A stretch of 64,000 nucleotides of DNA from Anaerolineales bacterium (GTDB lineage Bacteria > Chloroflexota > Anaerolineae > UBA1429), in the NCBI GenBank assembly GCA_046538105.1, contig JBKHJO010000005.1, forward strand, positions 916 to 64,915. Reading direction: 5' to 3'. The notes under the pieces are model-generated. The model was not told where the DNA came from. It saw only the letters and a program-made list of their open reading frames with translations, and did not search any database. Numbering within the stretch: the first letter of the stretch is position 1; the number at the start of each line of letters is the position of its first letter. The translations under genes were made by a program, and so were the position numbers. Positions 5,497 through 64,000 of this stretch are shown piece by piece.

Positions 5497-6930
5497 GTGG
5501 CTGAGAAGAGACCGAACATATTGTGGATCTGTACCGATCAGCAACGCTACGATACCATTCATGCGCTGGGGAACGGGCACATCCGCACACCCAATCTGGA
5601 TCGCCTGATCGCGGAGGGGGCGGCGTTCACGAGTGCCTATTGTCAGAGTCCCGTCTGTACGCCGAGTCGGGCCTCGTTTTTAACGGGGCGTTATCCGAGT
5701 ACGGTGCACGTGAATCGCAACGGTAATGCGTACTTTCCCGAGGATGTGGAATTGATTACCAGGAGGCTGGCCGACGTGGGTTACGATTGTGGTCTGGCAG
5801 GAAAACTGCATCTTTCGGCCGCTGATGGCCGGGTGGAGGTGCGGCCGGACGATGGATATCGGCTGTTTCGCTGGAGTCACCATCCCAAACCCGAGGATTA
5901 CTGGCCAACAGAGAAACACGATTATCAGAAGTGGCTTTCTGACGAGGGTATCGATTGGGACGAAGCCTATGGGGGCGAGACGCCCGATGGCTCGGCGTTG
6001 CAGGGAAGTTATAGGCCTGGCATAGATGCCGCCCATCATCAGACCACATGGTGCGCCGAGGAGGCCATCGCCTTTATGGAAAAGGAGCGGGAAGGCCCCT
6101 GGCTTATGAGCGTGAATCCTTTCGATCCTCATCCTCCTTTTGATCCCCCTGCCAAGTATTTGGAGCGCATGGATGTGGAGGCCATGCCCTTGCCCCTCTT
6201 CCGCCTGGAAGAGCTGGAGAGCCAACTCGATTTTCAAGATATCGATCATCAGACGGAATTGCCCCGTTCCCCCTATGACTATGACGCGCGGCTGATGGTG
6301 GCGGCGTATTATGCCCAGATAGAGTTGATCGATCGGCAGGTGGGGCGCATGCTGGATGCCCTGGAGGCATCTGGGCAGCGGGATAATACCATTGTCATCT
6401 TTATGAGCGATCACGGCGAGATGCTGGGAGACCACGGGTTGTTGCTCAAGGGATGTCGCTTTTACGAAGGCGCGGTGCATGTTCCCCTGGTGATCTCCTG
6501 GCCGGGGCATTTCAAGGAGGGGCTGCGGAGCGAGGCGCTTGTGGAGTTGACGGATATCGTTCCCACCCTTTATGAGGCGTTATCCCTGAACGTACCCGAG
6601 AATGTCCGGGGGGTATCCCTGCTGCCCATTCTTGTGGGACAACACAATCCGGGCATCCACCGTGATGCGGTACGTTGCGAGTACCACGATGCGCTGGCGC
6701 GACCCCATGCCAGCCATGCCAATATGCTTTTCGATGGTCGCTACAAGTTGATCGTCTACCATGGTCATGAGGTGGGCGAATTGTACGATCTTGAAGAGGA
6801 CCCCCAAGAGTTCTACAATCTATGGGAGGATGTCGAGTTCAAGGATCTGAAATACGAACTGATAAAAGATCTTTTTGACAGGGTCATGTTGGCTACAGAT
6901 CTTGGACAGCCCCGGGTGGGGCGGTTCTAG
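5497..6930 (+). CDS. Cys-type sulfatase (arylsulfatase A family)
   Basis: PNILWICTDQQRYD metal-site motif and the formylglycine signature C-T-P-S-R in SPVCTPSRASFLTGRYP. Later IVIFMSDHGEMLGDHG. Confidence 0.85.
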   Translation: MAEKRPNILWICTDQQRYDTIHALGNGHIRTPNLDRLIAEGAAFTSAYCQSPVCTPSRASFLTGRYPSTVHVNRNGNAYFPEDVELITRRLADVGYDCGLAGKLHLSAADGRVEVRPDDGYRLFRWSHHPKPEDYWPTEKHDYQKWLSDEGIDWDEAYGGETPDGSALQGSYRPGIDAAHHQTTWCAEEAIAFMEKEREGPWLMSVNPFDPHPPFDPPAKYLERMDVEAMPLPLFRLEELESQLDFQDIDHQTELPRSPYDYDARLMVAAYYAQIELIDRQVGRMLDALEASGQRDNTIVIFMSDHGEMLGDHGLLLKGCRFYEGAVHVPLVISWPGHFKEGLRSEALVELTDIVPTLYEALSLNVPENVRGVSLLPILVGQHNPGIHRDAVRCEYHDALARPHASHANMLFDGRYKLIVYHGHEVGELYDLEEDPQEFYNLWEDVEFKDLKYELIKDLFDRVMLATDLGQPRVGRF

Positions 6931-16714: not shown

Positions 16715-18205
16715 TCATCGATCCTGAATCCTTCTGGGATAGGGGCGATACCATCCCTCTCGACCAAAGGCCGTGGTTTGGGATAGATCGCTGGTATAAA
16801 CACGCCGGTCGTGGAAACCGTCGTTTATGGAACGCATCAAAGTTTGTGTGAGGGCCATATCAAGGTTCCGGAGAATCTGTCTGCAGTCACCATCGTCTAT
16901 TAGGTTTTTCTGTTCTTTGGGATCATCATAAAGGTTAAACAGCAGTTCTTCTCCCGTATCGTATTTGGCCAGCCGCCACTCGCCATCATATATCATCCAA
17001 CCTCCCTGCAAAACGCCCATGATGTATTCTCGAGGGTTTCGTTCCTCAATGCCAAGAGCCGGTAACGGTGTGGAATCCAGATAATCGGGAACCTGACAGC
17101 CCCCAAGATGGAGCATCGTGGCAGTAACATCGCCAAGGGTTACGAGTTCCTGGTTCGTTGTCGGGCCATCGGCCCAGGGGATGTACATGAGCAGGGGGAC
17201 ATGACAACTCGCCTCAAAGAATGTCCCCTTGCCGATCAGATCGTGATCTCCCAGATAATCGCCATGATCGGAAGAGAAGATGATGATTGTGTTATCCAGC
17301 AAATCCTTCTCGCGTAGTGCATCGAGTATCTGGCCTATCTCATAATCTATCTGTTTGACCAATCCCGCATAGTGAGCGCGGACCTTTTTCTTCTGTGCCA
17401 TAGTGAACTCGGAATAATCGACACCATTCCAGGGGAGGCGATTACCTTCGATGTTTTGTTGTCTGAGTTGAGGGGCATCTCCCTCGACTTTGGGGGCTGG
17501 CTCGGGCATATCTGCAGGGGCAAAGGGCTCCAGGAACTCTGGCGAGGGATCATAGGGGCAGTGGGGACCAGGGAACCCTACCATCATGGCAAAGGGCCCC
17601 TCGTTACCGTACTCGCGGATAAAACGACACGATTCCTGCCCCACAAAGTGATCCACAGAATATTCCCAGGGAATCTTGTTGATAATAGCGCCCTTATTCT
17701 CAAAGTAGCCCTCGTGCTCTTTTCCATGCAGTTTTCGATAGCCATGGGCTCTGAGAAAGTGATGATAGTCATCCCGTATGTGGATCCAGCGCTTATCCTC
17801 CGCAATGACGCGATACTGAAACCCCAGTCGCAGATCCCACGGGTAAAAGTGCATCTTTCCTATAGCCGCTGTATAGTATCCGCTCCCACTCAATATTTCC
17901 GGCCAGGTAGAGAGACCGCATTCGCGATAGTCCGCGCGCAGAAACTGGCCGTTGCTCAGAACCCCCGTTCTTGCTGCATTCATACCAGTTAACAGAGAGA
18001 CGCGCGCAGGAACGCAAAGGGGATGTGGTGAATAAGCATTGCTGAACAAAACGCCCCTCTCCATGAGGCTATCGATATGGGGCGTATCGATGAAAGAAGC
18101 GTCATAACAACTCAAAAAGTCGGCGCGCAACTGATCCGGCATAATAAAAATGAGATTTGGTTTTTGGGGCACTTTTACCTCCTCCTCCCTGTTTCGGGGG
18201 CTCAT
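16715..18205 (-). CDS. Cys-type sulfatase
   Basis: PNLIFIMPDQLRAD and C-V-P-A-R in HPLCVPARVSLLTGM. Preferred start is MSPRNREEEV at 18205, 1 nt after the upstream stop (alternative 18232). The rest of the listed 586-aa ORF overlaps the upstream gene. Confidence 0.8.
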   Translation of the reverse strand: MSPRNREEEVKVPQKPNLIFIMPDQLRADFLSCYDASFIDTPHIDSLMERGVLFSNAYSPHPLCVPARVSLLTGMNAARTGVLSNGQFLRADYRECGLSTWPEILSGSGYYTAAIGKMHFYPWDLRLGFQYRVIAEDKRWIHIRDDYHHFLRAHGYRKLHGKEHEGYFENKGAIINKIPWEYSVDHFVGQESCRFIREYGNEGPFAMMVGFPGPHCPYDPSPEFLEPFAPADMPEPAPKVEGDAPQLRQQNIEGNRLPWNGVDYSEFTMAQKKKVRAHYAGLVKQIDYEIGQILDALREKDLLDNTIIIFSSDHGDYLGDHDLIGKGTFFEASCHVPLLMYIPWADGPTTNQELVTLGDVTATMLHLGGCQVPDYLDSTPLPALGIEERNPREYIMGVLQGGWMIYDGEWRLAKYDTGEELLFNLYDDPKEQKNLIDDGDCRQILRNLDMALTQTLMRSINDGFHDRRVYTSDLSQTTAFGREGWYRPYPRRIQDR

Positions 18206-18206
18206 A

Positions 18207-19943
18207 CTATTTGGCCTCTGACGGGGATTCATTCCCTTTCTCTTCAGAGATTCTCTCTTTGGCATCCCGCAGATCATCGTAGACGCTGAACCATTCTGCA
18301 AGTTCTGCCTGGCGCCTTTGCATCTCTCTTTGCCGTTGCGCCTCGCGAAAGGCCTCAAGGCGACGAAATATCTCGTTCTGTACATCGTGGGGGTTCGGGA
18401 CTCGGTTGAATGTGAAACTCCCCGCACCAGCGGTTTGTATGACAACATCCCCATAGTCAAAGGCCGCTGCCACAAAACTGGGGATTTCCAGACTTACATG
18501 CTGGATCATTCCCAAACTGGCCTCACGTCGCTCCTCCGACACAAAGAGGGGACGCTTATCAATATCCACAATCCGATCGTTCGTCACGATGTAAAGATCA
18601 TTGCCCCAATCGACCATGTTCCACCAGAGCAGCCCTACGAGAAAGATGGTGACGGGAACCAACATGAACGGATAATAGGGATATAACTTTGTCACCAAGG
18701 GTTGCGGAATACCAAAAAAGCCCAGGAGCATCGCCACACTCACGATGAAGCACCAAAAAAGAGGGGCAATGGTCTCCCGGATGAGAAATATCCAGTGTTT
18801 TCTCCATGTGGTGGCCTCTTCAGTCTGCATTCGCGTGCGTGGGATGAGGCCATGCTCTGCCATCCAGGTGAGAAAGTGTGTGATCGGTCCAGGTTGCACT
18901 TGTATCACCGCAGACCCGTTAGTGTGGCCACTATCTTCCAGGCCGCCTCCTTCAGCCACGGCCTCGGAACCCTCCAACCCCAAATGGCGTGCCAGAGTAT
19001 CACGTACGACCTGGCGCTGTTCGGCGTGGCGCGTGGCCTGAGCGCGGGCCATCTCTTCCCAGAGAGCCTCTCTTGCTTCTTCGGGCTTGGGAATGTGGTC
19101 GAACCGTATAGTACCGACGTCGGCGGCCGTTTCGATGACCAAGTCGCCGTAATTCAGCATCTGTCCCACAAAGTCGCGTACTATCCGAAAATCCTGTATT
19201 CGCGCCAGGGGGGCGGCATTTCGTGATTCGTAGAGAAAGGCAACCTGTTCGCGATGGACGACTCTTTGGTTGGAAGCGACAAAGTAATCATTGCGCCAGT
19301 CGACCCAGTGCCAAAGAAAGCTCAAAGCATAGAACGCGGATAGGAGGGAAAACGGGATGGCCGGATTCGGGCTGGGCGTAATCCGCATCCTCAACCAGAA
19401 CAGGATTGCAAAGGAAAGGAGCACGACAAGAGTGCTCACCATCATGGAGCGCACAAACATAATCCAGTGCCTACGGGTATGATATATTATCACTTCCCCA
19501 GGGCCTAACCAGGTATAGTGGGGAGCCTGCAATTTCTCCCTTATATCCGGTCGGACGGTCAACTGTTGGGATAGGCCTTCGTATCTCGAAAGCAGCCCTT
19601 GAAACTCGGGGCGCGTCAGCATCCAAATGCGCATTTCTGTTTTGGCAGTGACGGTGGCATCCCGGGGCTCGCTCAAAAAGAGGGCGGTGGTACCAAAGTA
19701 ATCACCGCGCCGCATCATATTTACGGGACGTTGGAGACCGTCTTCGTCCACCCGGTGGACGGCAGCCTCTCCCTGGCGGATGAGGAAAAAGATACTCCCC
19801 AAGTCCGCCTGGTGGGTCAGTGCAGTCCCCGCCGGAATCACACGCTCTTCACCCGCGTTGGCAACTAACGCAAGATAGTGTTCCGAAAGTTGCTCAAAAA
19901 GGGGGATCCTAGAAAGCTCTTCTACCAGGCTCATCTGTGGCAT
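18207..19943 (-). CDS. Membrane protein: N-terminal cyclic-nucleotide-binding domain plus two TM-hairpin/bPH_2 (YdbS/YdbT-like) modules
   Basis: cNMP fold: IPLFEQLSEHYL...FFLIRQGEAAV...RRGDYFGTTALF...RDATVTA. Two units of the form (TM-TM)-YFVASNQRVVHRE...NYGDLVIETA and (TM-TM)-LYIVTNDRIVDID...DYGDVVIQTA. Confidence 0.75.
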   Translation of the reverse strand: MPQMSLVEELSRIPLFEQLSEHYLALVANAGEERVIPAGTALTHQADLGSIFFLIRQGEAAVHRVDEDGLQRPVNMMRRGDYFGTTALFLSEPRDATVTAKTEMRIWMLTRPEFQGLLSRYEGLSQQLTVRPDIREKLQAPHYTWLGPGEVIIYHTRRHWIMFVRSMMVSTLVVLLSFAILFWLRMRITPSPNPAIPFSLLSAFYALSFLWHWVDWRNDYFVASNQRVVHREQVAFLYESRNAAPLARIQDFRIVRDFVGQMLNYGDLVIETAADVGTIRFDHIPKPEEAREALWEEMARAQATRHAEQRQVVRDTLARHLGLEGSEAVAEGGGLEDSGHTNGSAVIQVQPGPITHFLTWMAEHGLIPRTRMQTEEATTWRKHWIFLIRETIAPLFWCFIVSVAMLLGFFGIPQPLVTKLYPYYPFMLVPVTIFLVGLLWWNMVDWGNDLYIVTNDRIVDIDKRPLFVSEERREASLGMIQHVSLEIPSFVAAAFDYGDVVIQTAGAGSFTFNRVPNPHDVQNEIFRRLEAFREAQRQREMQRRQAELAEWFSVYDDLRDAKERISEEKGNESPSEAK

Positions 19944-27654: not shown

Positions 27655-28794
27655 TTATTCGCCACTATCGGAGGTCGATTTTCCCAGGAGGCGCTCGTAC
27701 AGACCTTCGTACTGAGGAATGATGTCATGGTAATCGAACAAGGCCGATGCCCGCTTGCGGGCTCCTTTACAAAGTCTCTCATATAGAGCGTGATCTGTGA
27801 GCAATGTGATGGCATCCTCGGCCATGGCCTTTGTATCTCCTACGCTTTCCAGGAATCCTGTCTCGCCATGCTGCACCACCTCGCGTAATCCCCCAACATC
27901 GCTGGCGATGACGGGTACGCCGCTGGCCATGGCTTCCAGGGCTGCCAGACCAAATCCTTCCAGTTGGCTTGGCAGCAGGAATAGGTCGGCCGTCTTTAAC
28001 AGGGATGCGACTTCCTCAGTCACGCCTGTAAAACGCACACGATCGGAAATGCCCAGTTCCAGGGCCTTTTGCAGCGCATGGCAGGTGTCGGGACCATCGC
28101 CGACCATAATCAACCGGGCATCCACCTTCTCCGCTACGTACGAAAAGATCTCGATCACGTCCACCACCCGCTTGACTGCGCGAAAGTTAGAGATGTGCAT
28201 GAGGGTTCGCTGTCCGGGTGAGTCCGCGGGTGGAACGCATGAGGGAATATGGGCCTCATGCCTATCCAGATCCACGAAATTGTAGATGACCTCTATCTCC
28301 TTTTCGACCTGAAATTGGCGGTATGCCTCTTCTTTGAGAAAATGGGAAACCGTGGTGACGGCATCCGACTGTTCTAGGGCAAGTTTTGTGACGGGGAGAA
28401 AGGCGGGATGGCTACCCACTTCTGTCACGTCGGTGCCATGGAGGGTAGTCACTACCTTGAGGTCAAGTTCCGAGGCGATCTGCTTCACCAACAAGGCAGC
28501 CGGCGCAAAGGGGATGGCATAATGGACATGCAAAAGTTGCAAGTTTTTCATGCGGGCCACGGTGACTATCTTGGACGCCAGTGCCAGAGTGTGGGGAAAG
28601 TTTTGAAGAAGAGGATATTCTACAACTTCTACCTCGTGAAAACTAACCCCAGCGGGCGGACGGGAAAGACGCAAGGGAGCCGCGTAGCTTATAAAGGCTA
28701 CCTGATGTCCCCTTTCGGCTAGGTGCTTACCCAACTCTGTAGCCACGATGCCGCTGCCACCATGTGTCGGATAACAGATAATTCCTATACGCAT
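27655..28794 (-). CDS. bshA: N-acetyl-alpha-D-glucosaminyl L-malate synthase BshA (GT4)
   Basis: MRIGIICYPTHGGSGIVATELGKHLAERGHQVAFIS parallels the Bacillus BshA N-terminus. GT4 E-x7-E region PSQLEGFGLAALEAMASGVPVIAS. It sits in an operon with bshB and bshC. Confidence 0.8.
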   Translation of the reverse strand: MRIGIICYPTHGGSGIVATELGKHLAERGHQVAFISYAAPLRLSRPPAGVSFHEVEVVEYPLLQNFPHTLALASKIVTVARMKNLQLLHVHYAIPFAPAALLVKQIASELDLKVVTTLHGTDVTEVGSHPAFLPVTKLALEQSDAVTTVSHFLKEEAYRQFQVEKEIEVIYNFVDLDRHEAHIPSCVPPADSPGQRTLMHISNFRAVKRVVDVIEIFSYVAEKVDARLIMVGDGPDTCHALQKALELGISDRVRFTGVTEEVASLLKTADLFLLPSQLEGFGLAALEAMASGVPVIASDVGGLREVVQHGETGFLESVGDTKAMAEDAITLLTDHALYERLCKGARKRASALFDYHDIIPQYEGLYERLLGKSTSDSGE

Positions 28795-28826
28795 CTTTTC
28801 TCCCTTGTAACTGGTAAAATTCGCGG

Positions 28827-29543
28827 TTAAAACGAAGAAAACGTCATTCCCAGAGGGTCAGGGGCTTCCAGTACCCCACGAATCAAGAACCCTTCACCGT
28901 ACTTTTTGCCGACGAGCGAGCCGTAATACGCCATACGGTGTCTGAGAGACCAATTGTACCCACGGGACGTCAGACGGGTCTGTTTATAGAAATCATCGTC
29001 GGGCCTGAATTGTGAGGAATAGGCATATATGGCCTCCATCTTTTGTTCGTACTGTTCGCTGATGTCCACAATGAAGGTGGGCTCGAATTCATCCCAGGCC
29101 ATATAATAGGCGAGGCGTTTGGGGCGAAAACTCTCCCGTCCTGTTCTGTACCGCGTGAGTCCGGCAAGAAAAATCCCTTCATAGACCAATGTGCTCGTAT
29201 GGTAGTGGTCGGGATGTCTGTCCTCATAGTAGGGCAGAAAGACGAATTCTGGTCGATATTTGCGCACCATGCGGGCTACCTTGTCCTTTGCCTCTTTGGT
29301 GGTGTGTATATGCCCATCTTCCAAACGTAAATTCTCGCGTGTCTCGCCGCCTATGATTTGCAGGGCCTTTGCTGCTTCCTGCCGGCGCGTTTCCACTGTG
29401 CCCCGCGTAGCCAACTCTCCCCGTGTCATATCTACCAGCACGACAGAGTACCCCATGGAGACCAGTTTTATCAGGGTACCGCCGCATCCCAACTCGATGT
29501 CGTCAGGATGTGCGCCAAAGGCCATGACATCAATCTCTGGCAT
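28827..29543 (-). CDS. bshB: N-acetyl-alpha-D-glucosaminyl L-malate deacetylase BshB (LmbE family)
   Basis: Start MPEIDVMAFGAHPDDIELGCGG at codon 51 of the listed ORF, after GGAGGAAAAGG. ...PYYEDRHPDHYH. Overlaps the bshC stop by 14 nt. Confidence 0.85.
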   Translation of the reverse strand: MPEIDVMAFGAHPDDIELGCGGTLIKLVSMGYSVVLVDMTRGELATRGTVETRRQEAAKALQIIGGETRENLRLEDGHIHTTKEAKDKVARMVRKYRPEFVFLPYYEDRHPDHYHTSTLVYEGIFLAGLTRYRTGRESFRPKRLAYYMAWDEFEPTFIVDISEQYEQKMEAIYAYSSQFRPDDDFYKQTRLTSRGYNWSLRHRMAYYGSLVGKKYGEGFLIRGVLEAPDPLGMTFSSF

Positions 29544-31110
29544 CCTTTTCCTCCACAACAAGGATATGATGACGAAAGTCATCGAGAGCGCCAGCCGTCG
29601 CGAGTTCATCGACCAAGCCGAGTCCGTGAATGTTCGTGAAATGGGGCAGGGGCAGCACGCGCTCCTGCAGGCGATCGCGGGGAAGGACGACATTTTGTAG
29701 GACGTGTATCTCTCCCTTGGACAGCCCCTTCTGGCTCATGAGAGCGCGTGTGCTGCTCTCCTCCAGTTTGTTGATGCCGCGCAGTGCGTTGTTCACCGCC
29801 CATTCCCAACTCCTGGTCATGCTGGGATCGATGTCTTTGACGTATGGTCTCAGCGGCGCGAACGCCTTCTCTACCTGCTCTCGGGCCACGCCAAAGAGAT
29901 CAGTTCCGGACTCAAAAGTGAACTCATTCAGTACGTCGCTGGGGTCGGGTTCCCGCGTCAGGAGCTGCTTTGGTGTGATGCCATAGCGTTCCATGTTATC
30001 CCGCTCGCTTCCGCGAACGAGGGTGTAGCTCTTGCGGGGGAAGAAAAGCGGCTGAGGAATATCGAACAGGTCGTAAAGGGGTTTGAGCATGGCGTGATAC
30101 GTTATCTCGCCGGGGCCCAATACGCTAACCACGATAGGCAGGATGGCATCGGCAAAAAGGGGACGCAGGGCCGCATCGGTTGAATAACGTTCGGGATGGG
30201 AACTGGCCTTGTCCACGTGCACCGCGGGCTCCTGTACCCGCACGCGATTGCCCTGAGCGTCAAAAGTGAAGGGACGACCGGCATCTTCTACAGGAAGTAG
30301 AACCTCATAGTCGGCAGCGGCCAAGTCCTTGGCGACTCCTTGCAGACGATACGTCATTTCCTTCGTCCTTTTTAGAGCGGCCTGAAAGATATGGGCTCCG
30401 AGGGGTCGCAGGATGCGCGGTTCGACGATGACGAGTCCATAGTCAGCAAAGAGTGATGACCATAGCCTGCCGTGCCAGGTACAGTAATCCTCTCCCTCTT
30501 GGGGTGCAAAACGGTCCCTTGTGGCCGCATGGTGTGTGCCGGGAGTTAATCTGTCAAAGTACGTTTGGAAGGCGTCTTCTATTTCCTCTGTAATTCCCAG
30601 ATCGGCGATGGGGCTCCCTTGCTTATCCCAGGAAAAGTCTAACTGTCCCATCTCCCCATCAGGCTGAAAATAGTAGACGTGATTGATCTCGTCAAAATCA
30701 TGGTCCTCGGTGGCCATCCAGAACATGGGCACTGTATGGACAGGAAGGGTCTGGTTGAGATGAGCGGCCAGGCGGATCGTGCTGATGATCTTGTAGGTAG
30801 TGTACATGGGTCCGCCCAAGAAGCCCACCTGTTGACCCGCTATTACACAAAATGTGGAAGGTTGCTGCAGTGAACGGATATTGGTAAGGGCTTGCTCACC
30901 AGCTCCCAGTTGCCGATTGTAGCGCAACAACTGTTCCACGAGTTCCCTGCGAGGATAGTCGTAAGCCTCTCGATGCGTCAATGCGGCCTCGTAATCCGTC
31001 GGCTCATGTGTAAAAAAACTGCTGGCCTTCCCTTTTCCCTCAACATAGTCGAGATAGAATTTACGTCTGAGCCGTTGAGGGATCTCTTCCCAATCGACAT
31101 CGACAATCAT
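29530..31110 (-). CDS. bshC: Bacillithiol biosynthesis cysteine-adding enzyme BshC
   Basis: CVIAGQQVGFLGGPMYTTYKIISTIRLA, PMFWMATEDHDFDEINHV and RPLFADAILPIVVSVLGPGEITYHAMLKPLY parallel B. subtilis YllA/BshC motifs. Confidence 0.85.
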   Translation of the reverse strand: MIVDVDWEEIPQRLRRKFYLDYVEGKGKASSFFTHEPTDYEAALTHREAYDYPRRELVEQLLRYNRQLGAGEQALTNIRSLQQPSTFCVIAGQQVGFLGGPMYTTYKIISTIRLAAHLNQTLPVHTVPMFWMATEDHDFDEINHVYYFQPDGEMGQLDFSWDKQGSPIADLGITEEIEDAFQTYFDRLTPGTHHAATRDRFAPQEGEDYCTWHGRLWSSLFADYGLVIVEPRILRPLGAHIFQAALKRTKEMTYRLQGVAKDLAAADYEVLLPVEDAGRPFTFDAQGNRVRVQEPAVHVDKASSHPERYSTDAALRPLFADAILPIVVSVLGPGEITYHAMLKPLYDLFDIPQPLFFPRKSYTLVRGSERDNMERYGITPKQLLTREPDPSDVLNEFTFESGTDLFGVAREQVEKAFAPLRPYVKDIDPSMTRSWEWAVNNALRGINKLEESSTRALMSQKGLSKGEIHVLQNVVLPRDRLQERVLPLPHFTNIHGLGLVDELATAGALDDFRHHILVVEEKDARD

Positions 31111-42006: not shown

Positions 42007-42017
42007 ATGAATCCCTG

Positions 42018-42413
42018 TGGAGATGGCGGGAATCGAACCCGCGTCCAAAAAGTTCGGCCAGAGACATCTACAGGCTTAGTCGATCCACGTTATCTCATAG
42101 ATCCGATTTTGCTCGACAAAACCCGTAATCTACCAGCCGACAAAGAGTCTTTGGTCGGCGATATCGGCGTCTCCCCGACCGCAGCCCGATTTAGCCGTCG
42201 CCCGTTACTTTTCTCTCGGGCTAAGAAAAAGTAAGGACGTGATCGACGCTTCTTGGCCGATCAGGCTCTTGCTTTAGCTGGTGCTACGCAGCTAGAGCGT
42301 AAGCCGGAGTATAAGTGTCTTCGGCACTTAAAAGTTTGCCTCTGATTTACGAGGATGAGGCACCTCGACCTGCAGTCCCTAACCAGCCCTTTCTGTCGAA
42401 TCCTGTCATCCCC
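42018..42413 (-). ncRNA. ssrA: tmRNA (transfer-messenger RNA), ~396 nt; tag reading frame c(42284..42325) encodes AEDTYTPAYALAA-stop
   Basis: The minus strand starts GGGGAUGACAGGAUUCGACAGAAAGGG and ends GGACGCGGGUUCGAUUCCCGCCAUCUCCA (tRNA-Ala-like acceptor/T-arm; CCA not encoded). Internal ...UUUUAAGU GCC GAA GAC ACU UAU ACU CCG GCU UAC GCU CUA GCU GCG UAG. smpB lies 1.2 kb away. Confidence 0.9.
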
Positions 42414-43566: not shown

Positions 43567-44049
43567 TCAGTATTTTCCTTCCCGCTCCGCACGCCGGATC
43601 GCACGTTCTATGGCCCGTTTCGATTCTCGTTCGCGAATGGCACGTCGCTTGTCATATGCTCGCTTGCCCTTGGCGAGGCCGATCTCGACCTTTGCTATAT
43701 CGTTCTTGAGATAGAGTTTTAGAGGGACGATGGTATACCCTTTCCGTTCCGCACGTCCAAGCCAGCGGTCAATCTCCCGCTTATGCATGAGAAGTTTTCT
43801 GTCACGCTTGGGATCGTGATTTTCATAACTGGCCTGATCATATCCGGCGATGTGGCTGCCCACCAACCATGCTTCTCCATTGCGGATCGTGACATAGGCA
43901 TCCCGCAGGCTCACGCGCCCCGCACGAACGGATTTTATCTCCGAGCCCTTTAGCACGATGCCGGCTTCCAGTGTGTCCTCGATGAAATAATCATGAAATG
44001 CCTTGCGATTGCGAGAGACAACGCGAACCCCCTTTTGTTTCCTTGCCAT
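43567..44049 (-). CDS. smpB: SsrA-binding protein SmpB
   Basis: NRKAFHDYFIEDTLEAGIVLKGSEIKSVRAGRVSLRDAYV...KRDRKLLMHKREI. Confidence 0.95.
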   Translation of the reverse strand: MARKQKGVRVVSRNRKAFHDYFIEDTLEAGIVLKGSEIKSVRAGRVSLRDAYVTIRNGEAWLVGSHIAGYDQASYENHDPKRDRKLLMHKREIDRWLGRAERKGYTIVPLKLYLKNDIAKVEIGLAKGKRAYDKRRAIRERESKRAIERAIRRAEREGKY

Positions 44050-56467: not shown

Positions 56468-57856
56468 TCAGACCGCGCCTGTGTGAGAGACCTCATACTT
56501 GCCCTGAACCCCCTTCACAGGCGCTCCCTTGAGAGCGTATAGGGAGCCAAACATCGCCGCCAGCCGCTGGGCTTCCTCGGGATGCTCGTCGATTAAATTG
56601 GTCGTTTCCTGCGGATCCTTCTGGAGATTATACAGTTCATCCGGTTGCCCCTCGGGACGGCGAATATAGCTCCAGACCTTGTCCCGAATGCAGCGGTCCG
56701 GCGCCTCAAAGTAGCCACTGATGATGGCCTTCCGTATCTCGTCGACCTCACCACGAATAAGAGGCATGAGGCTTTTTCCTGGCAAAGCATCCAGGTTATT
56801 CCCCATGCCAATGGCATCGAGCAACGTGGGAAGCACATCATGGAAGGAAGAAAGGGCATCAAGATGTTGCCCGCCATACTGCCCCCTGGGGAATTTGACT
56901 ATAAAGGGTACCTTGAGCAGTTCACTGTACATGCGATCACCCCCCTTGAGGAATTTGCCATGATCGGCCAGGGGATGTCCATGATCGGCGATAAAGATGA
57001 TCAGCGAATCGTCATACATCTCCGCGGATTTCAAGGTCTCTAGAAACTGCCCCACATAGTGATCGACATAGGCACACTCGCCTGCATACAGTCCACGGAT
57101 ATAATCGATCTCTTCCTGACCAAAGTGCGTGGATGCCTGGCCCCCCGGGGGAAGCACACATTTCTTCCCCGAATAATCCGGATCCGTGTACTTGTTAAAT
57201 GTGGCTGGCGGTGTCCAGGGCTCATGAGGATCAAAGGAATCCACCCATAGGAAAAAGGGTCGCTGAGAGATATTGGCCTCGACCCATTCGCCCGCCCGCT
57301 TCATGAGACGCGCACAATAGTGATCCTCGGCCGTTTCAAATTCCTCCACGTTCTTGAGCGCCGTCTTCACGATTCGACGCCATTCGGGAGTATAGGTATC
57401 TTTGCAATAATCATCGAGATTCAGCCGTTTGAGCGGGGCAGACCGATAAGCGTCATACTCCTGTCCTCTGATCCAGTCCCAGACTCTAAACCCACGATGA
57501 AAGTTCATTCCCGGCTTGAAATAATGGTAGCAGTCGGTGAAACAGGCACTCAGGTATCCTTCGTCCGACAGCAACTCGGCCAAAGAGCGATCTTCGGATG
57601 TCAAAGGCTGCCAGGGGCGGTGCACCAATGTGCGTTCCCCCGTCAGCCAACATGTCCTCACCGGGATGGTGGGCAATCCCTCAGGATAGCAATTATCAAA
57701 AACTACACTTTCGCGCGCCAGCGCGTCCAAACATGGTGTCTCACAGGGTGAATCGGAATTGTAAAAGCGCACGTGATCCTGTCGAAAAGAGTCCGCGATG
57801 ATAAAAACAACGTCCGTCGCCTGTCTATCAACCACGATACCCCCTCTCCTTTCCAC
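56468..57856 (-). CDS. Sulfatase-fold (alkaline-phosphatase superfamily) hydrolase with Thr at the nucleophile position
   Basis: VVFIIADSFRQDH...GLPTIPVRTCWLTGE aligns to the C-x-P-x-R signature but reads T-I-P-V-R. Later IIFIADHGHPLADHG. Confidence 0.75.
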   Translation of the reverse strand: MERRGGIVVDRQATDVVFIIADSFRQDHVRFYNSDSPCETPCLDALARESVVFDNCYPEGLPTIPVRTCWLTGERTLVHRPWQPLTSEDRSLAELLSDEGYLSACFTDCYHYFKPGMNFHRGFRVWDWIRGQEYDAYRSAPLKRLNLDDYCKDTYTPEWRRIVKTALKNVEEFETAEDHYCARLMKRAGEWVEANISQRPFFLWVDSFDPHEPWTPPATFNKYTDPDYSGKKCVLPPGGQASTHFGQEEIDYIRGLYAGECAYVDHYVGQFLETLKSAEMYDDSLIIFIADHGHPLADHGKFLKGGDRMYSELLKVPFIVKFPRGQYGGQHLDALSSFHDVLPTLLDAIGMGNNLDALPGKSLMPLIRGEVDEIRKAIISGYFEAPDRCIRDKVWSYIRRPEGQPDELYNLQKDPQETTNLIDEHPEEAQRLAAMFGSLYALKGAPVKGVQGKYEVSHTGAV

Positions 57857-58617: not shown

Positions 58618-58876
58618 CTCTTGCCCTCCATCAACAAGAATCCATCTCTATTGTACTGCATGTTTGTCAAAGAGACAATCAGATCGACAAAACCCAGTCT
58701 GTTGGACGCGTTCACCCAACTGTGTTATGATGATTGGCAGGTAAAAAGGGGCGATCTGGTGCCCACAGGTCGAGTCGTTGCCCATCTTCAACCTTGATCT
58801 GTTAGAGCATTTCTTTGTTCCGGCAACTTGTCCCTCAATTGCCCCATTCAGTCATCATATATGACAGGAGATCCAG

Positions 58877-60793
58877 ATGGATAGCCAAAAGAGCACACTG
58901 AAAGAGACGCGAATAGAGATCATCTACTGTGTCGAATGCAATCTGGGGTCGGAGGCCAGACGTTTGGCAACGGCGATAAAGAATCGCTTCGGCCTCGAAG
59001 CGAAACTGGAGGAAGGCCACGACGGCATCTTTGAGATAAGGATAGACAACCATGTCATGTATAACAATCTAGCCCAGGGAGGACAATTACCAACCGACGA
59101 GGAGATTCTTCAGGAAATTCAACGACGTATGGAGCCACCCTCCAGCATAAAAAGGCAAAGCCTGAAAGTCATGAACCCCATGGGTTACCCCCCGGCGGTG
59201 ACTCAAATCGAGATGGCACCCCGGATCGACACCCTGGAGGGCAAGACTGTGTATCTGGTCGATTGCCGCTTCGATGATGGCGATCTGCTCATGGCCCAGA
59301 TGCAGGCATGGTTTGAGAAACATATGCCCTCTGTGAAAACGGTGCTGCGCAGCAAATCCGGTGTCTATACCGAGGATGATCCAGAACTCTTTGAGGAGAT
59401 CGCCGAAAAAGGTGACGCCCTGGTCTTGGGGGTGGGCCATTGAAGCACATGTGCTCCGGCGGTCGCCGAGCATTCCATCAACATCGAAGACGAATATGGG
59501 ATACCGACGGTATCGATACACACGGACGCCTTTGAGCAGGCGGTCAAGGCTGTGGCCCGTACACACGGTATGCCCCAACAGCGACTTGTCTTTGTCCCCA
59601 TGCCCGTCATGGGCAAGTCGCCGGCAGAGTTAAGGGAGTACATTGAAGGAAACGATCCCGTCACGGGTCAGCCTGTTATGCCCGAGATCGTCGATGCCCT
59701 CACACGCCCCCTGAGTGAGGAGGAGAAAAAAGCCTTTCGATTTGACCGCTCCACTCCCCGCTTTGTGGACCCCGATACCGAGGCAAATCTGCGACGTCTG
59801 TTCGTCGAAAAGGGTTGGACGGACCATTTGCCCATCATCCTCCCTACGGAGGAACGCGTCGACGCCATGCTATCCGGCACAAGCCGTGACCCCCAAGAAA
59901 TAGTGGGCCAGATGCGCCCCACCTCTACGCGCGAGGCGTGGGAATACACCGTCGAAAAAGTGGCGGTGAATGCTGTAATGGCCGGGGCGAGACCAGACTA
60001 TTTCCCCGTCATACTGGCCTTGGCGGCTACCGAGGTTTCTGCCCGTCCCAGCACTACGAGTTCAGCAGCCTGTATGACGGTCGTGAACGGACCAATACGC
60101 CACGAGATCGACATGAACTGTGGCATCGGGGCCATGGGGCCCTACAATCACGCCAATGCAACTATAGGACGAGCCTACGGGTTGCTTTCGCAGAACCTAC
60201 AGGGCGGCTCGGAACCTGGCCTCACCTACCTGGGATCGCAGGGCAATAACTATGCCTATAATAGTGTCACTTTTTGCGAGAATGAGGAACATAGCCCCTG
60301 GACGCCGTTCCACGTCGAACAGGGCTTTGAGACCGAAGAAAGTACGGTCAGCGTCTTCAGCGGCGTGCGCTCCACCGCCTACAATCTTGGCGTGCGGGAG
60401 AAGCACTGGCGCGAACACGTGCGCAACATGCTGCGCGGGATGAATCCTTATCTGCCTCCCACCCTTGTCCTGGACCCCATCACCGCACGGCAATTCATCG
60501 ACCGTGGAGGATTTGACACAAAGGAAAAACTCATCCAGTGGATCCACGACAACGCCAGGATGCCCGCAGGCGTTTATTGGGATCATCAACTGATCCAGAA
60601 TTACGTGTATCCTCGCGCCCTGAATGGGGTGGAGCCCTATGCCACCATGCTTGAGGCTGCCGACGATGAATTGATCTCCGTCTTTCCCAAAGACATGATC
60701 CACATCGTCGTTGTAGGCGGGGAAACAAACGGGTATTGGCGCATTATGGGCTGCAACTATGCAGGAAGTATCTCCATCGACGTGTGGAGGTAG
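58877..60793 (+). CDS. Candidate selenoprotein (638 codons, TGA=Sec at codon 189): Rdx/SelW-like CxxC domain + UGSC-like UxxC domain + unassigned C-terminal domain
   Basis: ORFs 58877..59443 and 59552..60793 share one frame. They are separated only by the TGA at 59441 and 36 open codons. A SECIS-like hairpin follows the TGA. AGGAG lies upstream of the ATG at 58877. IEIIYCVECNLGSEARRLATAIKNRFGLEAKLEEGHDGIFEIRIDN is Rdx-like. LEGKTVYLVDCRFDDGD...ALVLGVGH-U-STC...GIPTVSIHTDAF is UGSC/GrdB-like. Confidence 0.7.
59452..59472 (+). promoter_or_regulatory. SECIS-like stem-loop (UGCUC-C-GGC-[GGUC]-GCC-GAGCA) 8 nt downstream of the in-frame UGA
   Basis: Base pairing read directly: 5 bp, a bulged C, then 3 bp and a GGUC loop at +21..+24 from the U of UGA. 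Confidence 0.6.
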
Positions 60794-61010
60794 TACCCAA
60801 AAGAAGGAACGCGTGAGTGCCAGCCACCCCCTACCTGGCCGGAAAACAACATAACCTTTGGGCTGGGAATGGGTTACAACTATTGCAAAAAGGCCCTCGA
60901 ATCCCACGGTTAGAAGTAGCCTGTAGGATATGATCACGGGATCATCCAGAAGCGTGCCCTTTCATGCAGTGTGTCATCACCAAAAAGATCACAGATAGAG
61001 AGGATACTTG

Positions 61011-62804
61011 ATGGGTAAGGAACCACACGTTTTCAAATTCCTGAGAGACAAGGTCATCATACACTCTAGGGGCAGAATGTGTGAGACCCCCGACGAACTT
61101 TTGACAAGCGCGCCCTTTAGGGAATTCCTCAGAACCGTCCTGCAGCGCCTGGCAAAAAGGAACTCGCGATTCATGGGAATATTTGGCCCCCAGCCTGAGC
61201 CTCCCCCGAAAATAGACGAGGAGTGCATTACGTTGCTGATCCAAACGCTTCAAAATCTGGCCAAACTGGACCGAGACGTAATTCCCAATATCCTGCCCGA
61301 TGCAAGAGTGTTTTTCCGAGATCCAGACCTGTTGAACGACTTTGTGGAATACCTCTATAACGCCTGGCGGGACTATGACCGCTTTATCATCATATCCGGT
61401 CTTCAGGGAGATCAACTGGACGAAAGGCCCTATAGAACATTTAACGAAACCGTGGAACAGCTCACACACCTGGTGCGAGGGACGTATCGTGACATTCAGG
61501 AAAACCTCACTCGACAACATCCTCAGGTCTATCGCCAGGCGCGTGCAGGTGCAGATATTGCCACCATCGTCTCGCAGAGTACCCGTGCCACATCTTGGAT
61601 AGAGGGAACCCCATATAACAAGTTAAAACAAATACCCATCGTTCGACAGGTGTTACTATACCCCCCGCTGGTGCTCGATCCACCAATGAACCGGCGCACG
61701 GGCCGGTTCAGGTGCGTCGATGAAAATCCCCTCCTCCTCGTCGATCCCGCAAGTGACGAGTGGATCTGCTATCCCGCCAAGGTGGGCAGGTTACTGATCC
61801 TGGTCTATATCCATGAAAAGTTTCTCGAACTGGGACTTTCTCTGTGCAACCTGTTCAAGGTCGCCGATGACGAGGATCTGGAAAGACAGCCGGACGCCAT
61901 CTACATGTTCGGTGTGCCCGGCGACGCCCTGGATCATTTTGGAACGCTGCCCACGATCTTCTATGACGATTCCGATAACGGGATGTTGGTCGGCGCTGTC
62001 CCCAACGCCGACCGATTCGGCTATTTTGGCTATCTGAAAAAGATGGTGTTGACGCTGCACAATATCAAGATGATGAAAAGGGACAGATTGCCGTTCCATG
62101 GAGCCCTGGTCAAGATCAGACTGAATAATCAGAACCACACTATCCTCCTCATCGGCGACAGTGGCGCCGGCAAGTCAGAAACTTTGGAGGCGTTCCGTAT
62201 TCTGAGCGAGAATGAGCTCCAGGATATGATTATCATCGCCGATGATATGGGGGCCATCGATATAACCGACGGCGACGCCTTGGGCTATGGCACAGAGATC
62301 GGTGCCTTTATCCGGCTGGACGATCTGCAACCCGGCTACGAGTTCGGCCAGATGGGGCGAGCCATATTTATGAGTCCCTCCAAGACAAATGCCCGCCTGC
62401 TCTTGCCCGTAACTACCTATCCCGACGTCGTACAAGGAAATAGAATCGACCTGATCCTCTATGCCAACAACTATGAAAGCGTGGACAAGAAACACCCCAT
62501 TATAGAGCGATTCGAAACTCCTACAAAAGCCCTCAAGGTATTCAAAGAGGGCAAAGTGATGAGCAAGGGCACCACCACAGCAGAAGGTATCGTACAATCC
62601 TATTTTGCTAACGTCTTTGGCCCTCCACAATATAGGGAATTGCATGATCGGATCGCCCGACGCTATTTTGATCACTTTTTTGCCCATAGCGTATTTGTAG
62701 GACAGATCAGGACGCGCCTGGGAATTCCAGGCTGGGAAACCAAAGGACCGGAAGAGGCAGCAAAGGCCCTGATCAGGTTGATGTTGACCGGCTACCGCTC
62801 CTGA
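61011..62804 (+). CDS. Large protein with a C-terminal HPr-kinase/PEPCK-like P-loop domain; N-terminal ~370 aa unassigned
   Basis: ATG 7 nt after GAGAGGA. LPFHGALVKIRLNNQNHTILLIGDSGAGKSETLEAFRIL...IIIADDMGAID parallels the HprK motif HG-x-L-...-G-x-SG-x-GKSE...DD. Confidence 0.65.
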   Translation: MGKEPHVFKFLRDKVIIHSRGRMCETPDELLTSAPFREFLRTVLQRLAKRNSRFMGIFGPQPEPPPKIDEECITLLIQTLQNLAKLDRDVIPNILPDARVFFRDPDLLNDFVEYLYNAWRDYDRFIIISGLQGDQLDERPYRTFNETVEQLTHLVRGTYRDIQENLTRQHPQVYRQARAGADIATIVSQSTRATSWIEGTPYNKLKQIPIVRQVLLYPPLVLDPPMNRRTGRFRCVDENPLLLVDPASDEWICYPAKVGRLLILVYIHEKFLELGLSLCNLFKVADDEDLERQPDAIYMFGVPGDALDHFGTLPTIFYDDSDNGMLVGAVPNADRFGYFGYLKKMVLTLHNIKMMKRDRLPFHGALVKIRLNNQNHTILLIGDSGAGKSETLEAFRILSENELQDMIIIADDMGAIDITDGDALGYGTEIGAFIRLDDLQPGYEFGQMGRAIFMSPSKTNARLLLPVTTYPDVVQGNRIDLILYANNYESVDKKHPIIERFETPTKALKVFKEGKVMSKGTTTAEGIVQSYFANVFGPPQYRELHDRIARRYFDHFFAHSVFVGQIRTRLGIPGWETKGPEEAAKALIRLMLTGYRS

Positions 62805-62831: not shown

Positions 62832-64000
62832 ATGGAGATGATGATTGTGAAAATGTATACTGAACCGGCACAGGAAATACCCATCAGTCGGGACATTGAT
62901 GCACTTGTCATCGGCGGCGGCCCCGCAGGATTGGCGGCCGCCATTGCCAGTGCCCGCCACGGCGCCCAGACGGTGCTCGTCGAACGCTTTGGCTATCTCG
63001 GTGGCACGGCCACAGCCTCCCTCATGGCTTGTATCAACGGGTTCCGCAACCAGGTGGAACCCGATACCATCCAGACGGTGCGCGGCATCGCCGAGGAGAT
63101 CGTGCTCCGACTCAAGGAACTGGACGGCCTGGGCCAGAGCCCGTATCCACAAAAGTCCTACCCCACCGAACCGGGCCAGATGGAATACAGCTACGCTATC
63201 GACACGGAAAAGTTTAAATATGTCTCGCTAAAGATGTGTGTCGACGCGGGCGTGGATATCATGTTCCACACCTGGTTCTGCGACGGTATCCTGGAGGACG
63301 AAACGCTACAAGGGGTCATCGTGGAAAACAAGTCGGGACGCCAGGCCATGATGGCCCGCACCATAGTGGATGCCACCGGCGACGGCGATGTGGCCGCGCG
63401 CGCGGGCGTTCCTTTTTGGCAGACAGTCCAAGACGAAGCACCAAGGCTCAATGACTCCCTTATGTATCGCATCCAGTTTGGAAAGGAACGCCCTGACCCT
63501 CCCTATGCCTGTGACTTTGGCACTAACGCCGTCGTTTGGGGACCGGGCGTGGGGCCCCTCAACGGCGTGGATGCCGATGACCTCTCTCAGGGCGAGATCG
63601 AGGCCCGGTTGCGCGTCTACGAGGACTGGGCTGCCAAACAAAAGGAGGAACCCCGTCTGGCGGACGCCGAGGTCGTCGCCACGCCGCCGCTCTTGGGTAT
63701 CCGTCAGACACGTTTCATCGAGGGCGAATACAAACTTACTGCCGAGGACGCCATAGAGGGACGTCGCTTTGACGACGTGGTAGCCATCAGTTCCTGTCCC
63801 ATCATCTCCTATTACGGCTACCGTCGCTACTTGGAACATGAGGGGTATGATATCCCCTATCGCTGCCTGGTCCCCAGGCGAGTAGAAAACCTCCTCGTCG
63901 CCGGGCGCTGCATCTCCAGTGAACAGCGACCCTACGAATCACACCGCGCCATGGTACCCATCATGGCCATTGGTCAGGCGGCCGGTCTCGCCGCAGCCCT
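62832..64000 (+). CDS. FAD-dependent oxidoreductase (FAD_oxidored / GidA-like fold), 3' end beyond the window
   Basis: Absent from the ORF track because it runs off the edge. DIDALVIGGGPAGLAAAIASARHGAQTVLVERFGYLGGTAT...IVDATGDGDVAARAG. Possible starts at 62832, 62841, 62847 or 62853. Confidence 0.8.
   Translation, partial: MEMMIVKMYTEPAQEIPISRDIDALVIGGGPAGLAAAIASARHGAQTVLVERFGYLGGTATASLMACINGFRNQVEPDTIQTVRGIAEEIVLRLKELDGLGQSPYPQKSYPTEPGQMEYSYAIDTEKFKYVSLKMCVDAGVDIMFHTWFCDGILEDETLQGVIVENKSGRQAMMARTIVDATGDGDVAARAGVPFWQTVQDEAPRLNDSLMYRIQFGKERPDPPYACDFGTNAVVWGPGVGPLNGVDADDLSQGEIEARLRVYEDWAAKQKEEPRLADAEVVATPPLLGIRQTRFIEGEYKLTAEDAIEGRRFDDVVAISSCPIISYYGYRRYLEHEGYDIPYRCLVPRRVENLLVAGRCISSEQRPYESHRAMVPIMAIGQAAGLAAA

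Follow-up and report, generated by a model that had tools for sequence, protein, structure and literature searches.

Bacterial selenocysteine (Sec) insertion sequence (SECIS) elements are described by a consensus, bSECIS, in which an apical loop of 3–9 nt caps a stem of 4–16 bp, a G stands within the first two loop positions and is usually followed by G or U, the distance from UGA to loop is 16–37 nt, and the minimum free energy (MFE) is −7.5 kcal/mol or lower (PMC13188914, Fig. 2A). In the SECIS of E. coli fdhF, U17, G23 and U24 are critical and the 17-nt minimal element spans +15 to +31 (PMC8659212). On the protein side, the UGSC-containing proteins form an established family of UxxC selenoproteins, a major one with predicted SECIS elements and among the most abundant in ocean metagenomes (PMC2398784; PMC13188914; PMC5029168), and a UGSC/Unknown_1 fusion selenoprotein has been described from Global Ocean Sampling data (PMC2398784, Fig. 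S1A). Here we analyse a hairpin that lies directly 3′ of an in-frame UGA in a stretch of 64,000 nt from an Anaerolineales bacterium (assembly GCA_046538105.1, contig JBKHJO010000005.1, positions 916–64,915), called the window below, to which all coordinates refer unless a locus is named. From the sequence comparisons that follow, we hold it highly probable (about 0.93) that positions 59451–59473 constitute a bacterial SECIS inside a UGSC-family selenoprotein gene at 58877–60793.

At 59441–59473 the DNA reads TGA AGC ACA TGT GCT CCG GCG GTC GCC GAG CAT. A preliminary description of the window had drawn from it a lower stem in which UGCUC (59452–59456) pairs with GAGCA (59468–59472), an apical stem in which GGC (59458–59460) pairs with GCC (59465–59467), one bulged C and a GGUC loop at +21 to +24 (counting the U of UGA as +1), and every base of this proposal proved correct on reading the sequence and with RNAfold, which adds a G59451–U59473 pair. 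The bulged C is 59457 or, equivalently, 59456, since either C can pair with G59468, and the 9-bp stem can accordingly be described as 3 bp, bulge and 6 bp or as 4 bp, bulge and 5 bp; it starts at +11. The MFE of 59441–59475 is −12.6 kcal/mol with exactly this hairpin, which by itself accounts for −9.1 kcal/mol within a 63-nt context. Folding of 59441–59500, the check that had been suggested for the proposal, again gave the same hairpin in the MFE structure. Set against the bSECIS consensus, all four properties fall within the described ranges: a 4-nt loop on 9 bp with one bulge, the loop sequence GGUC, a spacing of 17 nt (+4 to +20) and −12.6 kcal/mol. Its location directly downstream of an in-frame UGA and inside the coding region fits as well, and the hairpin is kept in Sec-containing orthologues and dispensable in Cys-containing ones, as expected of a bSECIS. 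The features concerned are the following.

58877–60793, forward strand: predicted selenoprotein gene, complete, with 638 codons plus stop and a lone in-frame UGA as codon 189
58866–58870, forward strand: Shine-Dalgarno-like AGGAG, 6 nt upstream of the ATG, read from the sequence
58910–59122, forward strand: Rdx / SelW-like domain, residues 12–82 (PF10262, 41.1 bits, cut-off 22.6)
59168–59641, forward strand: UGSC domain, residues 98–255, with the Sec codon inside it (PF24696, 100 bits, cut-off 25)
59441–59443, forward strand: UGA, predicted selenocysteine codon, residue 189, first position of the U-S-T-C motif in the middle of the UGSC domain
59450–59452, forward strand: TGT, resolving Cys of the UxxC motif, whose last two bases (G59451 and U59452) open the lower stem
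59451–59473, forward strand: candidate SECIS hairpin in its MFE structure, with lower stem 59451–59456 / 59468–59473 and apical stem 59458–59460 / 59465–59467
59461–59464, forward strand: apical GGUC tetraloop at +21 to +24, with G59462 and U59463 at +22 and +23
59642–60790, forward strand: uncharacterised C-terminal domain of about 380 residues, conserved with long-form UGSC proteins

The reading frame of 58877–60793 is unbroken save for the TGA at 59441, beyond which it stays open for 449 codons. The two open reading frames (ORFs) at 58877–59443 (188 aa) and 59552–60793 (413 aa) share this frame, and read-through of the TGA gives a product of 638 residues. A protein search returned more than 5000 homologues. 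Full-length Cys homologues of about 550 aa, 61–66% identical, read GVGH-C-STC-AP where the window reads GVGH-UGA-STC-AP, and the TGA aligns with the first Cys of this motif in P0002, P0003, P0008, P0075 and P0082. The closest protein matches (76–89% identical) are fragments of 425–441 aa with varied starts just past the point of the TGA, as expected where a gene caller halts at a Sec codon. TGA is the normal stop of 18 of the 43 Pfam-supported genes in the window; therefore recoding at 59441 is local and does not reflect a variant genetic code. A look for other selenoprotein genes, among the 39 TGAs of the window flanked on either side by 60 or more open codons, found a UxxC context only at 59441. 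Its sequence context, in frame in a UGSC-family gene and aligned with the first Cys of a CxxC motif, marks the UGA at 59441 as a genuine site of recoding.

Genomic loci were collected by a scan of species-representative genomes (n = 10), a scan of metagenomes (n = 80) and retrieval of DNA for Cys-type homologues (n = 8). A TGA occupies the codon in 88 orthologous loci, the window included, and in a distant canonical UGSC gene in locus L010, while TGC is found in 10 Cys-type loci and neither TAA nor TAG occurs there among the loci compared. One of the TGA loci, L001 from an Anaerolineae metagenome-assembled genome (MAG), matches the window protein over its full length at 90% aa identity with the same TGA; the TGA-bearing MAGs carry the labels Anaerolineae, Caldilineaceae, Chloroflexota, Poribacteria, Armatimonadota, Latescibacterota, Spirochaetales and Proteobacteria. 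The preliminary description had proposed two comparisons that could have gone against it, and both came out in its favour. Among TGA-type loci the hairpin is kept, its apical 10-mer GGCGGUCGCC at +18 to +27 being identical in 84 of the 86 distinct sequences of the 88 loci; the GGUC loop is likewise present in 84 of the 86. Across the 54 distinct 42-nt segments of Sec-type loci, G22 and U23 do not vary, and every Sec-type orthologue has C at positions 16 and 17. Among Cys-type loci the apical element is absent from all ten, and the segment +10 to +34 folds on average at −5.2 kcal/mol, as against −11.8 kcal/mol in the Sec-type. The resolving Cys (at the position of 59450–59452) is invariant in Sec-type and Cys-type sequences alike. 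Even where the hairpin has diverged among TGA-bearing relatives, the G-U dinucleotide still stands at +22/+23, as in L007 (1049–1093; Proteobacteria MAG), with the loop CGUGA, and in L010 (3268–3312; Acidimicrobiales MAG), whose distant canonical U-G-S-C protein reads GMGC-U-GSC and whose loop is CGUGAU.

The element also leaves its trace in synonymous positions. Codons +4 to +8 in the 86 distinct Sec-type sequences are GCG (81), CCG (85), GCG (84), GTC (84) and GCC (85), and the window departs from this consensus GCG CCG GCG GTC GCC at the first codon, which is GCT. Flanking codons of residues that are just as invariant vary without restraint (His, CAC 52 and CAT 34; Thr, ACC 66, ACG 10, ACA 5 and ACT 5; Cys, TGC 57 and TGT 29). 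Eighty-five Sec-type genes, whose median pairwise aa identity is 72%, were aligned by codon. Of the 248 conserved, degenerate columns, the four with the lowest codon entropy are codons +8, +5, +6 and +7; codons +4 to +8 together average 0.17 bits, where the mean of the gene is 1.14 and the next lowest five-codon window that does not overlap them stands at 0.85 bits. These consensus codons are mostly not the locally preferred ones; their joint usage probability is about 0.001, and among the Pro codons of the window only one is rarer than CCG. Within the ten Cys-type sequences, by contrast, codons vary (for Pro, CCG 5, CCC 3, CCA 1, CCT 1) and the amino acids drift as well, residue +8 being T, S, V or A and residue +9 being T. 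The combination of a synonymous freeze confined to the Sec-type and peptide drift in the Cys-type indicates that the RNA element constrains the peptide, and not the reverse.

Several observations weigh against the assignment. At gathering score, Rfam matches only the transfer-messenger RNA (tmRNA) in the window and nothing for the hairpin; at a permissive E-value of up to 10 it returned nothing relevant over 59441–59473, with local noise only (CRISPR-DR16, sR7). No selA, selB, selD or tRNA-Sec lies within the 64-kb window, nor were SelA, SelB or SelD domains found among its approximately 50 ORFs. The stability of the hairpin is ordinary when compared with dinucleotide shuffles, with z = −1.69 over 35 nt (9 of 200 shuffles as good) and z = −0.51 over 60 nt. 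The preliminary description had also claimed a match to the fdhF element to within one nucleotide; the loop sequence and the position of the bulge bear this out and the spacing is one nucleotide shorter, whereas the identity of the bulged base does not agree, being C here and U17 in fdhF, where U17 is reported to be essential for E. coli SelB (PMC8659212). Covariation, for which compensatory changes had been put forward as a test, comes down to a single pair, since the core is so constant. In the apical stem the pairs are the same in 53 of 54 distinct 42-nt segments, so that nothing covaries there; pair 15–29 is G-U in 30 segments, G-C in 11, U-A in 3 and mismatched in 10, with U15 found solely alongside A29, in the window, L001 and L047. 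RNAalifold backs just the 4-bp apical stem from C17-G28 to C20-G25. Two stem registers were counted, and the alternative register of the lower stem fits the majority of sequences about equally well, so that the bulge may be either the 5′ C seen in the window or, in the GCG...GYG majority, a 3′ pyrimidine. Lastly, much of the pairing follows from the peptide C-A-P-A-V-A itself, and two of the ten Cys-type loci (L092 and L095), the sole keepers of Ala-Val-Ala among them, retain a 3-bp stem capped by GGUC. The mini-hairpins in question lie at 919–963 of L092 and 913–957 of L095 and read UGC-GGUC-GCA and CGC-GGUC-GCG; they could be relics of a Sec-to-Cys conversion or a chance or codon-forced coincidence.

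The last two of these points are also those that speak for a hairpin without RNA function, a by-product of the conserved peptide C-A-P-A-V-A-x-H, with any Sec insertion directed by another signal. Two Ala codons, whose first two bases are fixed, supply the pairs G19-C26 and C20-G25, and the fixed bases of the Val codon supply G22-U23. When the window peptide STCAPAVAEHSINI was recoded 20,000 times by the codon usage of the window itself, 36% of the synonymous recodings kept the topology, that is, a hairpin of at least 7 bp with its loop at +21 to +24. The pairing is thus partly codon-driven. Only 2% of the recodings, however, folded as stably as the natural sequence, whose −12.6 kcal/mol (recoding mean −5.8) is reached with mostly non-preferred codons; moreover, the synonymous sites +15, +18, +21, +24 and +27 are each fixed in 81–85 of 86 sequences and are the most constrained of the gene, while the same sites vary in the Cys-type, where the peptide too drifts (A8 to T, S or V, residue 9 to T). 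We therefore consider a pure by-product very unlikely. That the TGA is instead a genuine stop, with a 188-aa Rdx-UGSC fragment and a 413-aa protein (from GTG 59552) sharing a frame by accident and the hairpin being a chance structure, a weak terminator or a pause site, would agree with the way in which gene callers split the orthologues (e.g. P0001, P0007 and P0028, 425–441 aa), with the use of TGA as a normal stop elsewhere in the window, and with the ease with which hairpins of the loose consensus arise. Yet the 36 codons between TGA and GTG encode conserved amino acids that, aligned with uninterrupted Cys homologues, fall in the middle of the UGSC domain, the called fragments begin at differing, non-conserved positions, a stop would cost the second half of both the CxxC motif and the domain, and no T-run stands 3′ of the hairpin; we find this reading extremely improbable. 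Hardly credible at all is a pseudogene, or a sequencing or assembly error for TGC or TGT (Cys): although a single base separates TGA from either Cys codon, the same TGA recurs in the 88 orthologous loci from independent assemblies with the downstream frame intact, TAA and TAG are never found in its place, and a conserved hairpin goes with it.

How readily such hairpins arise was gauged over all TGA trinucleotides on the two strands of the window (n = 1961). The loose published bSECIS model fits 142 of them (7.2%), and a strict fdhF-like version (loop starting G[G/U] and no longer than 5 nt, spacing 16–20, hairpin at least as stable as the target) fits 4 (0.2%), the target included; the 10-mer GGCGGTCGCC occurs a single time in the window. 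Taken from a single sequence, the hairpin is thus suggestive and not decisive, and it is the comparative evidence from the orthologues that places it far beyond chance.

For the bacterial SECIS favoured here, a mode of action can be proposed by analogy with fdhF. SelB carrying GTP and Sec-tRNA(Sec) would bind the apical part, namely the loop GGUC, which holds G22/U23, together with the one-base bulge beside it. A ribosome reaching the UGA at 59441 would melt the lower stem, whose start lies 10 nt downstream of the UGA, and the tethered SelB complex would bring Sec-tRNA(Sec) to the A site, so that UGA would be read as selenocysteine and not as a stop. In the product, U189-S-T-C192 would form the redox-active selenenylsulfide/selenol-thiol centre of the UGSC domain. 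SelB binding, Sec insertion and a redox role of the UGSC motif are all inferred from the described systems.

The protein itself combines three parts. Its Rdx domain shows both marks of the Rdx / SelT-SelW-SelH family, a profile match (with weaker matches to NF041051 and TIGR02174) and a CxxC near the N terminus, here CVEC in its Cys form (C18-V-E-C21). By tblastn, the Rdx fusion (window 58877–59122; L001 3001–3282) is absent from the other 97 related loci (L002–L098). For the UGSC domain, NF041046 'UGSC family (seleno)protein' gives 75.3 bits, under its equivalog cut-off of 125, and by these profile scores the window protein is a member of the Pfam UGSC family that falls outside the NCBIfam equivalog; the long-form homologues P0021 and P0102 already bear the name 'UGSC family (seleno)protein' from NCBI. 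The C-terminal domain is 61–89% identical to thousands of database proteins, and neither a Pfam match nor, by a PDB profile search, a PDB sequence match was obtained for it. A fold search with Foldseek against the PDB, for which the input was a mediocre AlphaFold2 model (pLDDT, the predicted local distance difference test score, of 74) of the Cys homologue P0002, gave no match at E ≤0.001 and only generic flavodoxin-like alpha/beta matches. More speculatively, the Rdx CxxC and long-form UGSC UxxC fusion might make a three-domain protein with an internal thiol-to-selenol relay serving the C-terminal domain, and at the same time gene and SECIS might travel as a portable recoding module read by very different SelB proteins, with the RNA dictating Ala-Val-Ala. 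The second part is suggested by the 12-nt SECIS core CCGGCGGUCGCC, which does not change among orthologues whose labels span five phyla. Taken jointly, the two parts strike us as possible but rather doubtful.

The window is syntenic with an Anaerolineae MAG contig, JAWLEV010000003 (that of L001), with neighbouring genes at 87–94% aa identity, and a comparison of gene neighbours found no other locus syntenic with it. Directly downstream of the selenoprotein gene, 61008–62804 (forward strand) encodes a 598-aa protein with no Pfam match and 87% identity in L001. It is followed at 62832–64000 (forward strand) by a gene for a flavin adenine dinucleotide (FAD)-dependent oxidoreductase, in the same frame after the TGA stop and running off the end of the window. 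The open frame across the TGA at 62802 was considered as a further recoding site and rejected, as the FAD-dependent oxidoreductase gene has its own ATG and the shared frame is coincidental. In three of the eight fetched Cys-type loci the long-form UGSC gene adjoins a thioredoxin-reductase-like gene (Pyr_redox_2, approximately 305–309 aa; L092 1–542, L093 2226–2835 and L094 2220–2829), which overlaps it in two, and this gene may be the reductase partner; in the window no Pyr_redox_2 gene is adjacent to the selenoprotein gene. Elsewhere in the window, an apparent bacillithiol biosynthesis cluster at 27655–31110 (reverse strand) comprises a GT4 glycosyltransferase (BshA-like), a PIG-L deacetylase (BshB-like) and BshC, and a gene for tmRNA (tag peptide AEDTYTPAYALAA; Rfam 174 bits) is found some 1.2 kb from smpB (42017–42413 and 43567–44049, both reverse strand). 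There are also three sulfatase-family genes, at 5497–6930 (forward), 16715–18475 (reverse) and 56468–57856 (reverse), together with several glycoside hydrolases (GH4, GH106-like, GHL6) and an ATP-binding cassette (ABC) sugar transporter; from gene content, this suggests an organism degrading sulfated polysaccharides.

As a SECIS, the element is of a known and expected type, an ordinary cis-element of a known selenoprotein family, and will not surprise the specialist. Selenoproteins of the UGSC family have been on record since the mid-2000s, and no new recoding question is raised, the mechanism being that of the textbook. The practical value lies in annotation, since gene callers split the window gene and at least 87 orthologues into pieces of 188 aa and approximately 430 aa where the correct product would be one 638-aa selenoprotein. 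In addition, Sec-type and Cys-type orthologues provide a natural experiment in which an intragenic SECIS freezes synonymous sites and apparently the Ala-Val-Ala peptide too, and such a contrast could serve as a signature for finding or validating bacterial SECIS elements without an Rfam model.

Compared with the UGSC family of the metagenomic selenoproteomes of Zhang and Gladyshev, the window protein shares the UxxC motif with Sec in first position and CxxC in Cys homologues, but its motif is U-S-T-C in place of U-G-S-C, and it is longer by a C-terminal domain of about 380 aa and by an N-terminal Rdx domain, the latter confined to this lineage. The UGSC/Unknown_1 fusion resembles the window long form in general layout, as UGSC joined to a conserved domain of unknown function, and no Rdx fusion is mentioned for it (PMC2398784).

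The closest counterpart of the RNA element is the SECIS of E. coli fdhF, the hairpin after UGA-140 of formate dehydrogenase H, which likewise is intragenic and stands directly 3′ of an in-frame UGA. The fdhF sequence given in the preliminary description was exact: the 31-mer occurs in the fdhF gene of 5412 of 5426 complete E. coli genomes and folds with a GGUC loop at +22 to +25, a 3-bp apical stem and a bulged U below it. Both hairpins have the GGUC tetraloop on an apical stem of 3 bp, and in both a single pyrimidine bulges from the 5′ strand before pairing resumes. That of the window stands 1 nt nearer the UGA, with its G-U at +22/+23 and not +23/+24 and the equivalent of the 17-nt minimal element at +14 to +30, and its lower stem starts at +11 and excludes the UGA, unlike that of fdhF. 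Their stem sequences are unrelated (GGC/GCC here, GCA/UGC in fdhF), and their host genes differ, encoding a small-thiol-type redox protein in the one case and a molybdoenzyme in the other; the cognate SelB is here presumed to come from a Chloroflexota-like organism, unlike the E. coli SelB of fdhF. By this analogy, the window element presumably works like the fdhF SECIS without being identical to it, and its specificity would lie with the cognate SelB.

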